Source of the DNA: a virus
Strand: one strand, 5' to 3'
Length of the DNA: 64,000 nucleotides
Virus record (IMG/VR): IMGVR_UViG_3300044695_004134
Span: 102,194 to 166,193 of that record
In this document: positions 32,865-40,140 of the stretch, piece after piece
Layout of the letters: the number at the start of each line of letters is the position of its first letter
How positions within the stretch are numbered: the first letter of the stretch is position 1
Notes under the pieces: generated by a model
Databases searched by the model: none
Told to the model about the DNA's origin: nothing
The model's input: only the letters and a program-made list of their open reading frames with translations
Made by a program: the position numbers and the translations under genes

Positions 32865-34304
32865 TTACAGCACTTTGTAACGGTCATCCATGATGGTTTT
32901 AAGCATCACAGTTTCTGGTGTGAAGGTTTCTAGGTCACCAGCAAGGAGTGGCTTAACCACGGCTGGAGAGAAACCAGACACCAGTGCAGTACCAGACTTG
33001 TCAAACTTCACAGGCGCATTGCCATATGAAGCGTTCAAGTTCCAGAATACAACCTTTGGAAGGGTGTAGCCTGCGGCTTCGTACTTTCGTGCGATCATTT
33101 GGATAGCAGAATCATCGTGGTTCACACATTGATTGAACTGCATATCTGACAGAATCAATACCATTTCTGGCATTTCATTCTGTGGAACACCGGCACCTAC
33201 TGCGGTAGCAAGGATTTTTGAAAATGCCTTGTTCAAGTCGGTGCTCATACCCCAATCAGACTTGATCATTTGATCAATCTTTTGGTTGATGTTACCTTTC
33301 AGATGCAACAACTCAGGGTTAGACGAGAAGGTCAAGAATGTATCCTTGAACTTACCGATGTTCTTGTCTGCAAGATACAATCCCAAAGAGACTGCAACTT
33401 CCATACATGACAACTTGCTGTTTGAACCATGGCCACCAGCTGGGGTTGACATAGAACCAGAAACGTCCACCAGAGGTAGGATGTTTCCATCGCCAACGTA
33501 GTTTGGCAGTGCTTCCCATTGCTTTTGGATCAAGTCCATTTCGGTCTTGTCGAACTTCACACCATAGCTGTTGATACGACCCTTCAACACATCGTATGGA
33601 TACACAGCGCCAGCGTTGACTTTTACTTCAACGGTGCGATCTTTTGGATCCTTCATCAGTTCTGCAACGTAAGCCGCATAAGCTGGAGAGTTACGGTTGA
33701 AAGCCTTCTTGTAACGGGAAGCCGCTACGGAAGGAACATGTGAGAAGTTAATGGAATCCCAGTCCTTTGCACACATGTTGGTTTCGACAACCTTGGTCAT
33801 TTCGACCAATGACTTACGGTAGAACTTTGGTGACATTCCGAAGAATGTACGGATTTCTGCCGCAATTGGACCTTGGCGAGGAGTCCACTTAGCCGCAAGA
33901 CCATTCTTTTCACGGAGTGCGTTACCAAGAATAGTGTATGCGACTTCTTTCAGTGCCTTGGTCTTGAAGACAAACAAGTCATCCCAACGACCCAATTCTG
34001 GCACTTTAGCCAACAGAGCCTTAGCGGCTTCTGTATCAGTATTTTCCAGGTACACTAGGATATCACGGAATAACTGACGTTCACCTGCACCGCCACGTGC
34101 ATCACGTAGCCATGCGGCAACACGGAGAGCCAATTCACGGTTTTCTGCCAAGGCAGCCGCAAATGCAGGCTTAATATCTTTTCCACGGGATGCACCCGCA
34201 TTGTAAAACAAATCTACCACCGCATTGGCGGTTGACTTGCGAGCCTTCATACCGTTTTCGGTACGGGCTTCTTGGTTCTTAACAGCTTCGACAAATGTTG
34301 ACAT
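32865..34304 (-). CDS. DUF2828-like TROVE/vWA (Ro60-like) protein
   Basis: RDARGGAGER, GRWDDL, AAKWTPR, FSHVPSVA; vWA MIDAS DVSGSM and LSDMQF; RBS AAGGAG before ATG 34304. Confidence 0.85.
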   Translation of the reverse strand: MSTFVEAVKNQEARTENGMKARKSTANAVVDLFYNAGASRGKDIKPAFAAALAENRELALRVAAWLRDARGGAGERQLFRDILVYLENTDTEAAKALLAKVPELGRWDDLFVFKTKALKEVAYTILGNALREKNGLAAKWTPRQGPIAAEIRTFFGMSPKFYRKSLVEMTKVVETNMCAKDWDSINFSHVPSVAASRYKKAFNRNSPAYAAYVAELMKDPKDRTVEVKVNAGAVYPYDVLKGRINSYGVKFDKTEMDLIQKQWEALPNYVGDGNILPLVDVSGSMSTPAGGHGSNSKLSCMEVAVSLGLYLADKNIGKFKDTFLTFSSNPELLHLKGNINQKIDQMIKSDWGMSTDLNKAFSKILATAVGAGVPQNEMPEMVLILSDMQFNQCVNHDDSAIQMIARKYEAAGYTLPKVVFWNLNASYGNAPVKFDKSGTALVSGFSPAVVKPLLAGDLETFTPETVMLKTIMDDRYKVL

Positions 34305-34322: not shown

Positions 34323-34441
34323 CAACAGGTTAAACTTTTTGCGGACCATTGTGCTACCATTACACTAGACCCCTAAGGGAGCCGGAATCGAACCGGTCTT
34401 TCGGTTTTATTTGCATTAAAAATTGTTGCGGAACTTAACCT
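34323..34441 (-). ncRNA. Y-RNA-like element 1 with permuted tRNA-like domain
   Basis: Stem AGGTTAA/TTAACCT plus GTTCCGCAA; cargo is T-arm, capped acceptor-like stem, D-arm. Confidence 0.72.
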
Positions 34442-34446
34442 AAAAA

Positions 34447-34555
34447 CAACAGAGTAGTTTGATTGCCTCCGTGGCACATCATCCGAGGGTGTCTTTCGAC
34501 TGGTGGATAATGCTGGAATCGAACCAGCTAGTTTGTGTTTTGCTGAACCTACTCT
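34447..34555 (-). ncRNA. Y-RNA-like element 2 with permuted tRNA-like domain and internal ACCA
   Basis: Stem AGAGTAG/CTACTCT plus GTTCAGCAA; GCTGG-TTCGATT-CCAGC, ATTATCC-ACCA ... GGATGAT. Confidence 0.72.
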
Positions 34556-34821: not shown

Positions 34822-34850
34822 ATTATATCACGTTAAGTGTAATTTGGCAA
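34822..34850 (-). promoter_or_regulatory. Sigma70-type promoter for the ncRNA-DUF2828 operon
   Basis: TTGCCA-17-TATAAT with extended TG; upstream TGTTG-N8-CAACA palindrome at 34865-34882. Confidence 0.7.
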
Positions 34851-35294: not shown

Positions 35295-35401
35295 ATATAA
35301 AAACATATTCGGTCCTAGCTTTCGGTAAAGCATATCTGCTTTTTAGGATAGCCCCTGCGTCCAGTTGCTAGGTATCCATAACCGTGAATATGTTTTTATA
35401 T
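35295..35401 (-). ncRNA. Stalk-enclosed structured RNA
   Basis: ATATAAAAACATATTC/GAATATGTTTTTATAT arms; inner CCTAGC/GCTAGG helix. Confidence 0.55.
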
Positions 35402-36964: not shown

Positions 36965-37035
36965 ATATAAAAACACATTAGACGAGGCGACCCGTTTCGA
37001 ACCAGTTCCTGCTTATCTCTAATGTGTTTTTATAT
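36965..37035 (-). ncRNA. Stalk-enclosed small RNA
   Basis: ATATAAAAACACATTAG/CTAATGTGTTTTTATAT arms. Confidence 0.5.
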
Positions 37036-37109
37036 GGTGGAGGATAGGAGAATCGAACTCCTGCTTCATGCTTGCAAAGCACATGTGCTACCATTACCAC
37101 TAATCCCCC
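37035..37109 (-). tRNA. tRNA-Ala(TGC)
   Basis: TT-TGC-AA, G3:U70, CCA. Confidence 0.92.
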
Positions 37110-37114
37110 ATATA

Positions 37115-37178
37115 CAACAGAATAGTTTTTGCGTTTTCAATTACAAGTTGAATGCTTTTTATTTGCTGAACCTATTCT
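37115..37178 (-). ncRNA. Y-RNA-like element 4 carrying an anticodon stem-loop mimic
   Basis: Stem AGAATAG/CTATTCT plus GTTCAGCAA; cargo TTCAA-CTTGTAA-TTGAA. Confidence 0.68.
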
Positions 37179-37183
37179 AAAAC

Positions 37184-37262
37184 TGGCTCCGTATCTGGGT
37201 AACGATCCCAGCTAAACATTGATTAACAGTCAAGCCCATGCACCATGCTCGGGTTCTACGGA
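37184..37262 (-). tRNA. tRNA-Asn(GTT), atypical D-arm and T-loop
   Basis: CT-GTT-AA; T-loop ATCGTTA; CCA. Confidence 0.78.
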
Positions 37263-37269
37263 ATAAAAA

Positions 37270-37336
37270 CAACAGGAAGGTTTTTGTCGCTAGACAACCA
37301 TAAAGTTTAGCTAATTTTGTTTGCTGAACCCTTCCT
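37270..37336 (-). ncRNA. Y-RNA-like element 5
   Basis: Stem AGGAAGG/CCTTCCT plus GTTCAGCAA; short hairpin cargo. Confidence 0.65.
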
Positions 37337-37420: not shown

Positions 37421-37486
37421 TGGAGCAGTCACTACGATTCCCACGTAGGTATTGGGTGGACCCCAACACGGTTAATATCCGACTGC
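37421..37486 (-). ncRNA. D-armless tRNA-Gly-like RNA
   Basis: Acceptor GCAGTCG/TGACTGC-T-CCA, stem-loop containing TCC, T-like arm CTACG-TGGGAAT-CGTAG. Confidence 0.6.
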
Positions 37487-37568: not shown

Positions 37569-37682
37569 ATACTTTATTAAAACATTCCTTACCTAGCATT
37601 TTCAGTGCAAGCCTTGCAGGAACCGGCTTATAGACTATCTAGGTTTCACAGATTCCACGATGGGAATATTTTAATAAAGTAT
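37569..37682 (-). ncRNA. Stalk-enclosed structured RNA
   Basis: ATACTTTATTAAAA(T)ATTCC/GGAAT(G)TTTTAATAAAGTAT arms; inner CCTAG/CTAGG. Confidence 0.52.
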
Positions 37683-38040: not shown

Positions 38041-38069
38041 ATTATAACATACTCTATATATGTTGGCAA
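38041..38069 (-). promoter_or_regulatory. Sigma70-type promoter inside the tRNA array
   Basis: TTGCCA-17-TATAAT with extended TG. Confidence 0.68.
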
Positions 38070-38070
38070 C

Positions 38071-38158
38071 TGGTGGAGCCTGAAGGAATCGAACCATCCG
38101 CCAACCACCCTCCAATTAAAGGCAACGGATTTACAGTCCGCTGAAGGGAACAGGCTCC
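38071..38158 (-). tRNA. tRNA-Tyr(GTA), lacking a canonical D-arm
   Basis: GCGGA-CT-GTA-AA-TCCGT, long variable region, TTCGATT, CCA. Confidence 0.68.
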
Positions 38159-38177
38159 AAAAATATGAGATTTATAC

Positions 38178-38697: not shown

Positions 38698-38702
38698 ATA
38701 TT

Positions 38703-38854
38703 ACCATATGTTTAGTGTTATCCGCCGATTTGTCAACAATGTAGCTAACACTGACAAGCGAATAGCAGTTATATCAGGATCCGTTCCTCGCACAGTTGGA
38801 CCCGAATAGTCATAGCGTCCTATAACGATACCTTGATAACACTAAACATATGGT
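38703..38854 (-). ncRNA. Stalk-enclosed structured RNA of about 150 nt
   Basis: 20-bp arms ACCATATGTTTAGTGTTATC/GATAACACTAAACATATGGT; inner GGGTCC/GGATCC and TTGTCA/TGACAA helices. Confidence 0.6.
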
Positions 38855-38955: not shown

Positions 38956-38994
38956 CTTCTTGCAACTGACTCAATCATTTGTTGCTATGTGTCT

Positions 38995-39022
38995 ATTATA
39001 ACACAACTATCTTTCTTGTCAA
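38995..39022 (-). promoter_or_regulatory. rrn-like sigma70 promoter
   Basis: TTGACA-16-TATAAT. Confidence 0.75.
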
Positions 39023-39099
39023 CTACTTTTTTTGCTCTGTTGTTTTTAAACAACGTTTGCTTTTTGTAGTCACATGTTGATTTCTCAACTCATGCATGT

Positions 39100-39127
39100 A
39101 GTATAACACAACCATGCATCTTGTCAA
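39100..39127 (-). promoter_or_regulatory. rrn-like sigma70 promoter (tandem upstream copy)
   Basis: TTGACA-16-TATACT; spacer similar to 38995-39022. Confidence 0.7.
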
Positions 39128-39159
39128 CAACAATTTTTATGTTGTTGTTTTTTTACAAC

Positions 39160-39438: not shown

Positions 39439-39530
39439 TGGTACCTCGACTGAGAATCGAACTCAGATGAACCAATTATCTGTTGCTTACGGGATATAAA
39501 TCCGCCGTTTTACCATTAAACTACCGAGGC
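39439..39530 (-). tRNA. tRNA-like gene with apparent TAT anticodon and about 22-nt extra region
   Basis: Normal acceptor, D and T arms and CCA; GCGGA-TT-TAT-AT-CCCGT then AAGCAACAGATAATTGGTTCAT. Confidence 0.6.
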
Positions 39531-40065: not shown

Positions 40066-40140
40066 CCATATAAAAACACATTGTTACACCCAATAGGATA
40101 ATAATCCTCATACGAGAATCACCAATGTGTTTTTATATGG
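40066..40140 (-). ncRNA. Stalk-enclosed small RNA
   Basis: CCATATAAAAACACATTG/CAATGTGTTTTTATATGG arms. Confidence 0.5.

Follow-up and report, generated by a model that had tools for sequence, protein, structure and literature searches.

The tRNA array and the anatomy of element 4

The DNA analyzed here, hereafter the window, is the final 64 kb of a 166-kb viral record that CheckV rates as 99% complete. It carries T4-type genes, such as one for a gp44-like clamp loader (Pfam), and 30 tRNA genes that all lie on the minus strand between 32.6 and 43.4 kb (called by ARAGORN and confirmed by Rfam). A gap of 232 nt in this array, from tRNA-Pro (37415-37342) to tRNA-Ala (37109-37035), contains the RNA element that we refer to as element 4. 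Read along the minus strand, the gap holds element 5 (37336-37274), a tRNA-Asn-like gene (37262-37184), the bases GUUUU, element 4 and a 9-nt trailer.

Element 4 is a 60-nt module (37119-37178, minus strand) composed of a 7-bp terminal stem (P1), a 5' motif, linkers, a 2-bp helix (P2) and a 5-bp stem (P3) that carries a 7-nt loop. It is delimited by the covariance model R1 (87.8 bits), by covariation and by RNAalifold; the range given by an earlier sequence-only reading, 37115-37178, corresponds to element 4 plus four trailer bases. The 5' strand of P1 (37172-37178) begins with A-G and pairs with the 3' strand (37119-37125), which ends in C-U and is followed by G, as seen in the frame scan and by covariation (helix 1 is 99.6% paired across homologs, with double changes in six of its seven pairs). 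Directly inside P1 lies the conserved 5' handle motif GUUCAGCAA (37163-37171; family core C-N-G-C-A), a region that is invariant among element 4 orthologs. The motif recurs in the tRNA cluster, with three exact copies and nine matches at no more than one mismatch, compared to 1.8 expected. An A-rich linker leads to P2 (37155-37154 with 37132-37131; helix 2 is 93% paired, as GC, AU, UA or CG), and P2 is followed by P3 (37152-37148 with 37140-37136; helices 3 and 4 are 95-99% paired and every pair covaries). P3 and its loop CUUGUAA (37141-37147) together form an anticodon-arm-like hairpin (37136-37152), recognized by covariation, geometry and loop statistics and of marginal stability. The 5-bp stem and 7-nt CUUGUAA loop that the sequence-only reading had proposed were thus borne out on the minus strand at 37152-37136. 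On the 3' side (37126-37135), an AAC bulge, the 3' strand of P2 (37131-37132) and an A-run (37126-37130) make up a linker with invariant alignment columns. The 9-nt trailer (37110-37118), defined by tRNA spacing, is at the same time the 5' leader of tRNA-Ala.

Folding energy lends no support to this structure. The MFE z-score of element 4 is -0.25, the isolated hairpin has a dG of about +0.1 kcal/mol, its pairs are about 10% probable in the ensemble at 37 C, and it is absent from the MFE structure obtained by single-sequence folding. From the window alone, the hairpin could have arisen by chance. Rfam, searched at gathering and permissive thresholds, matched only tRNAs and nothing on element 4, and a DNA search of sequenced phages found no close relatives, with matches to the neighboring tRNAs only. 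We discarded a small-ORF reading, as the overlapping ORFs all cross tRNA genes, and also a terminator or promoter reading: there is no terminator-like site at element 4, and the nearest strong promoter lies upstream at 38069.

The typical element of this family begins 5-8 nt past an upstream CCA and leaves 9-10 nt to the tRNA that follows, the same spacing as between ordinary tRNAs of the cluster; 72 of 126 short elements end at most 15 nt (typically 9-10 nt) before the following tRNA. The upstream neighbor of element 4 (37179-37262, minus strand), recognized from its sequence and from orthologs in relatives, is a non-canonical tRNA-Asn(GUU)-like gene that ends in CCA, plus a 5-nt GUUUU spacer. 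In relatives the orthologous gene is called as tRNA-Asn(gtt) and sits 5 nt upstream of the element. The gene in the window (37184-37262, minus strand, 79 nt) has an odd D arm and the T-loop A-U-C-G-U-U-A, and was missed by ARAGORN and Rfam. In Acinetobacter T4-like phages, an unannotated stretch within the tRNA region matches it at 88-89% identity and has a segB homing endonuclease gene just downstream, a position that hints at transfer by homing.

A promoter scan identified a sigma-70-like promoter (38041-38069, minus strand; 11 of 12 matches, extended -10) as a candidate driver of the tRNA unit that includes element 4, and no terminator-like site was found from the 38069 promoter to the element. 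Given the tRNA-slot spacing, the upstream promoter and the lack of an intervening terminator, release of the element by tRNA-processing enzymes is plausible. The element itself is not called as a tRNA by ARAGORN or by Rfam RF00005. Its P1 is followed by G-U-U-G and thus lacks a 3' CCA, whereas every bona fide tRNA in the cluster encodes one, and we recognized no CCA-adding enzyme in the phage.

The tRNA cluster has further unannotated features. A 66-nt tRNA-like RNA (37421-37486, minus strand; fold z-score -2.9) lies between tRNA-Gly and tRNA-Pro, with a 6-bp acceptor-like stem ending in UCCA, a T-arm-like hairpin of 5 bp and 7 nt, a second hairpin and no anticodon arm. At 38074-38159 (minus strand) is a likely tRNA-Tyr(GUA) with a long variable arm that ARAGORN missed and for which the sole Rfam match is a weak tRNA-Sec hit (33.6 bits). 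The tRNA-Ile(UAU) at 39439-39530 (minus strand) is 92 nt long, unusual for an Ile tRNA, which suggests an insertion or a long extra arm. Upstream of tRNA-Glu lies a 105-nt tandem duplication (38987-39159, minus strand), each copy of which has its own near-perfect sigma-70 promoter (extended -10; 12 of 12 matches in one copy, 11 of 12 in the other). Bracketed inserts of a second type occur between tRNAs at 36965-37034, 40066-40137, 35295-35400, 38698-38850 and 37569-37682 (minus strand). Here perfect inverted repeats of 17-22 bp surround unrelated cargos of 35-112 nt; three of these inserts share the arm U-A-U-A-A-A-A-A-C-A, and in places the arms overlap the upstream tRNA at its CCA and the downstream tRNA at its first bases.

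Covariation and the anticodon-like loop

To place element 4 among its relatives, we gathered 80 related viral loci by way of a neighboring 494-aa protein. A frame scan detected the same bracket in 69 of the 80 loci, with 177 copies in total. R1, built from 16 aligned element 4 orthologs, yielded 197 matches from 81 sources, every one on the tRNA strand. All of these relatives come from few phage lineages. A motif scan of the viral collection specified 14 bases and returned many chance matches, so its output was filtered by R1.

In the alignment of 110 distinct homologs, which was fitted to the R1 structure and is hence biased towards it, pairing extends to 97.9% of cells and double changes are seen at 13 of 14 pairs. 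None of 500 shuffles reached this level of pairing, and slid registers came nowhere near it. RNAalifold, run on a MAFFT alignment, independently predicts P1 and the hairpin of 5 bp and 7 nt. The short helix P2 beneath the hairpin covaries as well, through GC, AU, UA and CG. Because of this covariation and the independent RNAalifold prediction, we conclude that the structure of element 4 is real and acts at the RNA level. The A-rich linkers and the A-run are strongly conserved among the orthologs.

The sequence-only reading had compared the hairpin to an anticodon arm, and like such an arm it has a 5-bp stem and a 7-nt loop with Y32, U33 and R37 equivalents. The geometry extends well beyond element 4: a stem of at least 5 bp with a 7-nt loop is found in 70 of 92 distinct short elements (76%) compared to 8.6% of shuffled cargos, and a Y-U-N-N-N-R-N loop in 47 of the 92 compared to 0.5% of shuffles. 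The family loop consensus is C/U-U-NNN-A-A. C predominates at loop position 1 across 22 distinct stems; of 43 distinct stem-loop combinations, 38 have U at position 2, 31 have A at position 6 and 34 have A at position 7. The wobble-equivalent position 3 is U or G in 39 of the 43 despite the A-rich cargo. The 1,469 real tRNAs of the same loci display the same loop pattern.

Individual loops also coincide with real ones. Of 31 distinct loop 7-mers, twelve reproduce exactly the anticodon loop of a tRNA from the same phages, where column resampling predicts 6.5 (P about 0.02), and all abundant element loops are among the matches (Thr-UGU, Lys-UUU, Arg-UCU, Tyr-GUA, Asn-GUU, Ser-UGA and Ser-GGA). 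The commonest element loops are the anticodon loops of the phages' own tRNA-Thr(UGU), Lys(UUU) and Arg(UCU). Applied to unrelated tRNA regions, R1 finds its best partial matches in real anticodon arms, those of T4 tRNA-Gln, Thr and Gly, and in Acinetobacter phage Maestro its partial match is an Arg(UCU)-like tRNA. We rejected the reading of the hairpin as a T-loop, as the loops lack the U-U-C-R-A pattern and the stem lacks high GC content.

The likeness has its bounds. Element stems contain 22% GC, compared to 60% in real anticodon stems, and a 7-nt U-turn loop is a generic RNA motif that is no proof of tRNA mimicry. About 24% of the short family members have loops of other sizes, and loops in the slot that adjoins the neighboring protein gene range from 7 to 11 nt. 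Because loop sizes differ across the family, the anticodon look is a trait of some subfamilies rather than of the family as a whole. The expectation that homologs would keep a 5-bp stem and a YU-NNN-RA loop while the anticodon varies holds for most: orthologs keep C-U-U-N-U-A-A with a covarying stem and a changing middle base, and 76% of the wider family keeps the geometry, but about a quarter departs from it in loop size. The specific tRNA-Thr identity proposed at first was not supported, as near-identical relatives show UCU or UUU and the stem of element 4 is unlike that of the phage's tRNA-Thr. Taken together, the mimicry of shape holds, and the interpretation given in the sequence-only reading is partly supported.

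Close relatives differ most conspicuously at one base. In the element 4 orthogroup the loop reads C-U-U-N-U-A-A, where N is seen as G, U, C and A. This middle base accounts for three of ten single-step differences between otherwise identical elements; for example, the G of the window is replaced by C in a relative that is 98.7% identical (L055). In a sister subfamily C-U-G-U is kept and the next base varies. The triplets exposed are UGU, UUU, UCU and UAU in one subfamily and GUA, GUU and GUC in another. This pattern is compatible either with relaxed constraint at one exposed base or with diversifying selection.

A shared handle and a Ro60-like protein

The frame of element 4 is not confined to it. 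This handle consists of the 7-bp terminal stem, which always starts with A-G and ends with C-U, the 5' motif NNN-C-A-G-C-A-A and the 3' A-run. Element 5 (37274-37336, minus strand; R1 34.1 bits, E 1e-4; frame scan) has the same handle around a different apical hairpin. Sister elements 1 and 2 (34327-34555, minus strand; frame scan and sequence) place it around permuted tRNA-body mimics with T-arm and D-arm or acceptor parts, whereas the cargo of element 4 is a single hairpin. The sequence-only reading had rightly noted the tRNA-body parts that elements 1 and 2 present on the frame of element 4.

The gene for the 494-aa protein (32865-34304, minus strand) belongs to the same-strand cluster as element 4, which is 2.8 kb upstream of it. 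This protein matches Pfam DUF2828 and DUF7788 and PHROG 850, annotated as 'RNA-binding protein', and it has no Pfam TROVE match. An AlphaFold model calculated from 24 homologs (AF2, pLDDT 72) identified its fold as that of Ro60, TROVE plus vWA: the top 13 Foldseek matches are all Ro60 over the full length (E 5e-7 to 5e-5), among them the Xenopus, human, Deinococcus and Thermus-phage structures.

Three handle-framed elements, two of them with permuted tRNA-body parts, lie between a promoter at 34850 and the Ro60-like gene. The probable start codon of the gene is the ATG at 34304, which is preceded by GGAG and where the conserved protein begins; the start of the longest ORF, 34349, falls inside element 1. 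With the start at 34304, element 1 ends 22 nt short of the gene and the last handle sits in its 5' leader, where binding of the protein might also regulate translation. This arrangement is common: in 66 of the 72 loci that have enough sequence upstream of the Ro60-like gene, 9-45 nt separate the end of a handle-framed element from the start codon. The cargo in this position is a short hairpin in 17 loci and is long in 49, so the same slot takes either kind. Conversely, all five contigs that we reached by the RNA motif alone encode the Ro60-like protein. Because the relatives come from few phage lineages, this co-occurrence is partly phylogenetic.

The association extends to cultured phages. 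In Synechococcus phage BUCT-ZZ01, whose protein is 48% identical, two or three elements directly precede the Ro60-like gene, and one of them has the stem of element 4 with the loop C-U-U-U-U-A-C. E. coli phage wV8, of Felix O1 type, encodes a protein of 38% identity, and R1 matches three inter-tRNA gaps just downstream of its gene; the handles differ by a compensatory pair, and the cargos are not U33-type loops. R1, which is tuned to short cargos, gave no match at distances of up to 9 kb from the homologous genes of Citrobacter phage Ci1 and Stenotrophomonas phage DLP_6, and Rfam YrlA had no match at E up to 0.1 in mycobacteriophage Wilder, which carries a 'Ro-like' homolog.

Both genomes contain RNAs that their records do not annotate. 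The three wV8 elements (L205 5255-5320, 5421-5478 and 5817-5884) occupy unannotated gaps of the tRNA cluster less than 1 kb from the DUF2828 gene (gp47). The BUCT-ZZ01 record annotates none of its tRNAs, and we found in it (L202 4776-5176 and 8690-9020) a two-piece, permuted tmRNA (112 bits with Rfam) as well as handle-framed elements, likewise unannotated, directly before the Ro60-like gene. For the phage of the window, the intervening segment of its own permuted tmRNA was considered as a handle element; the start of this segment, the part covered (L204), shows no handle motif.

Possible roles of element 4

Phage Ro60 proteins with Y-RNA-like partners are established, and Y RNAs gate Ro60 and tether it to partners such as PNPase (PMC4201824, PMC12135203). 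The family described here resembles Y RNAs (YrlA, YrlB, Yrn1 and Yrn2; Yrl1 and Yrl2 of Thermus phage phiLo) in several respects. Both are small and modular and reside beside a Ro60-fold gene (in the case of element 4, via its sister copies), both have ends that pair to form a terminal stem, with a conserved motif along the 5' strand, and in both the distal module varies, at least one paralog carrying a tRNA mimic and another a plain hairpin. Each species with Y RNAs has one tRNA-like Y RNA and one plain hairpin Y RNA (PMC4201824). Several Y-RNA paralogs are processed from one precursor (PMC4201824, PMC12135203), and multiple paralogs are present here too.

There are differences as well. The protein belongs to the divergent DUF2828 type, and in place of the published GNCGAA(N)G or GGUCCGA (PMC4201824) the handle has C-A-G-C-A-A (NNN-C-A-G-C-A-A) at a similar position. 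The Rfam Y_RNA and YrlA models do not match any element at E up to 10. The copies are scattered in tRNA slots of a 30-tRNA array, up to kilobases from the gene. Unlike YrlA, element 4 has no T-arm or D-arm mimic; its cargo imitates the anticodon arm, the one part that YrlA lacks. A 5-bp stem-loop resembling an 'anticodon arm' has been noted in D. radiodurans Yrn1 (PMC4201824), yet there the loop has 6 nt and the arm belongs to a larger tRNA-like fold, whereas here the hairpin is the sole cargo and has a canonical 7-nt loop that includes equivalents of U33 and A37, with support from covariation across about 90 distinct sequences.

We tentatively favor the reading of element 4 as a phage Y-RNA-like module of about 60 nt that combines a protein handle with an anticodon-arm look-alike as its cargo, a reading that we regard as possible without calling it probable. 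In this model, element 4 would be expressed with its tRNA unit and excised by the enzymes that process the flanking tRNAs: RNase P would act at the next tRNA, with a cut at 37109/37110 freeing the 3' end of the element, and RNase E or exonucleases would act behind the upstream CCA. The handle (P1, the 5' motif and the A-run) would then dock on the ring-shaped Ro60-like protein, with the GUUCAGCAA motif as the proposed contact site. The apical hairpin would be kept by selection in the shape of an anticodon arm, with 5 bp, 7 nt, equivalents of C32, U33, A37 and A38 and a free middle base. By analogy with Y RNAs that gate Ro60 and tether its partners, it may serve as a partner-binding module, its look-alike loop being offered to a protein that grips anticodon loops, for example a modification enzyme, a synthetase domain or a nuclease.

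A free anticodon-like hairpin of 5 bp and 7 nt can suffice for recognition by an enzyme or synthetase, as minihelices and the E. coli thrS operator illustrate. Minihelices are laboratory substrates, and thrS-type operators are cis-acting parts of an mRNA with a single specificity; the hairpin described here, in contrast, belongs to a stand-alone module with a protein handle and a middle base that changes.

Alternatively, element 4 may be a minimal 'second Y RNA' of the YrlB/Yrn2 type that works through its A-rich strands, for example by tethering host PNPase as in RYPER, with the hairpin as a mere cap whose anticodon look is a by-product of a stable U-turn. The Yrl RNAs of phage phiLo do bind PNPase (PMC12135203), and the strong conservation of linkers and A-run, the varying loop size in the slot beside the Ro60-like gene and the wV8 cargos without U33 all fit such a role. 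A cap, however, does not need the C32, U33, A37 and A38 equivalents that are fixed over 22 distinct stems, nor does it explain why A is excluded from the wobble-equivalent position in an A-rich context or why real anticodon loops are matched more often than by column-resampled loops. We consider this reading unlikely, while giving it real weight.

The sequence-only reading had suggested a decoy, and the free stem-loop, alone or together with the Ro60-like protein, may compete for anticodon nucleases of the host (PrrC, RloC, colicin-like enzymes, PARIS AriB or Cas13 collateral activity). The anticodon-loop signature and the rapid turnover of the middle base between near-identical phages fit an arms race, although a flipped-out base under relaxed constraint would equally show turnover limited to one position. 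Also in its favor are the triplets on display, UGU, UUU and UCU, which we take to be the anticodons of tRNAs targeted by known nucleases (PrrC, AriB and colicin D). In 47 of 59 cases the locus also encodes a real tRNA with the same anticodon, a match whose baseline is high as the phages carry about 24 anticodons. We recognized no RtcB-type or Rnl2-type ligase in the phage, which therefore has no recognizable tRNA repair route, again in line with a decoy. However, nucleases that recognize the complete tRNA would cut a weak AU stem without a tRNA body poorly, and we judge this role improbable.

Slightly less probable still is a role as bait or substrate for enzymes that modify tRNA anticodon loops. 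The determinants of t6A37 match the invariant U36-A37-A38 and C32 equivalents with a free position 35, and the C-U-G-U-N-A-A loops of the sister subfamily match the U33-G34-U35 rule for tRNA-guanine transglycosylase. The two largest subfamilies thus have loop patterns that agree with such a role, and tRNA enzymes modify YrlA RNAs in vivo (PMC4201824). Yet no TGT or DpdA was recognized in the phage, AT-rich composition alone favors U36, A37 and A38, and several loops fit neither rule.

We give equally little credence to a purely cis-acting spacer in the poly-tRNA precursor, a structured insulator that would aid RNase P or RNase E on the neighboring tRNAs and have no further role once released. 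Its position in a tRNA slot, its tRNA-like spacer lengths and U-rich flanks that appear similar to RNase E sites speak for this role. Most tRNA pairs in the cluster, however, are 1-10 nt apart without such a spacer, this handle is also found around elaborate tRNA-body mimics and where the Ro60-like gene begins, and the conservation of the loop is left unexplained.

An antisense or kissing-loop regulator is highly improbable. U-turn loops are the usual seed of bacterial antisense RNAs, and the loop of element 4 offers 3-5 bases for pairing, but its complement is not enriched in the window (13 sites compared to 12.6 expected), and the middle base that differs between near-identical phages would demand matching changes in every target. 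Scarcely credible is a reduced 'armless' tRNA or pseudogene with P1 as acceptor, the hairpin as anticodon arm and linkers in place of D and T arms: stem lengths of 7 and 5 bp and the slot are tRNA-like, but ARAGORN and Rfam make no such call, there is no CCA or discriminator-CCA and no recognized CCA-adding enzyme, the same 'acceptor' frames cargos with acceptor, T and D arms of their own, and the family, with covariation maintained in about 200 copies, is not decaying.

Non-tRNA small RNAs within a phage tRNA transcription unit have a precedent in T4 rnaC and rnaD (species 1 and 2), which according to the record annotation are released by tRNA processing; element 4 sits in a comparable tRNA slot. 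The T4 RNAs differ from it in their length of 120-140 nt and, for rnaD, in an encoded CCA end, and T4 has no Ro60-like gene. We rejected homology between the two: in the T4 tRNA region R1 gives only weak partial matches, and these are to real tRNAs.

Compared with the Y RNAs described so far, the module proposed here is new in its DUF2828-type protein with a handle motif of its own, in its scatter through a tRNA array and in its anticodon-arm cargo. Y RNAs are known to mimic the tRNA elbow, and an anticodon arm as the sole cargo is apparently undescribed in the Y-RNA literature. A bolder and rather improbable extension is that these elements are 'anticodon displays', interchangeable look-alikes on a Ro60-type handle whose fast-evolving triplet would bait, block or recruit host anticodon readers and which, together with the tRNA-body mimics, would form an RNA counter-measure in the phage-host conflict over tRNAs.

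The family is large and clearly under selection at the RNA level. DUF2828 proteins are present in more than 500 sequenced phages, many of them with big tRNA arrays, and a large RNA family tied to this Ro60-like protein therefore bears both on the role of Ro60 in phages and on the reason why phages carry tRNA clusters. Because the same handle occurs in the cultured phages BUCT-ZZ01 (PCC 7942) and wV8 (E. coli), whose hosts are tractable, the idea is directly testable.
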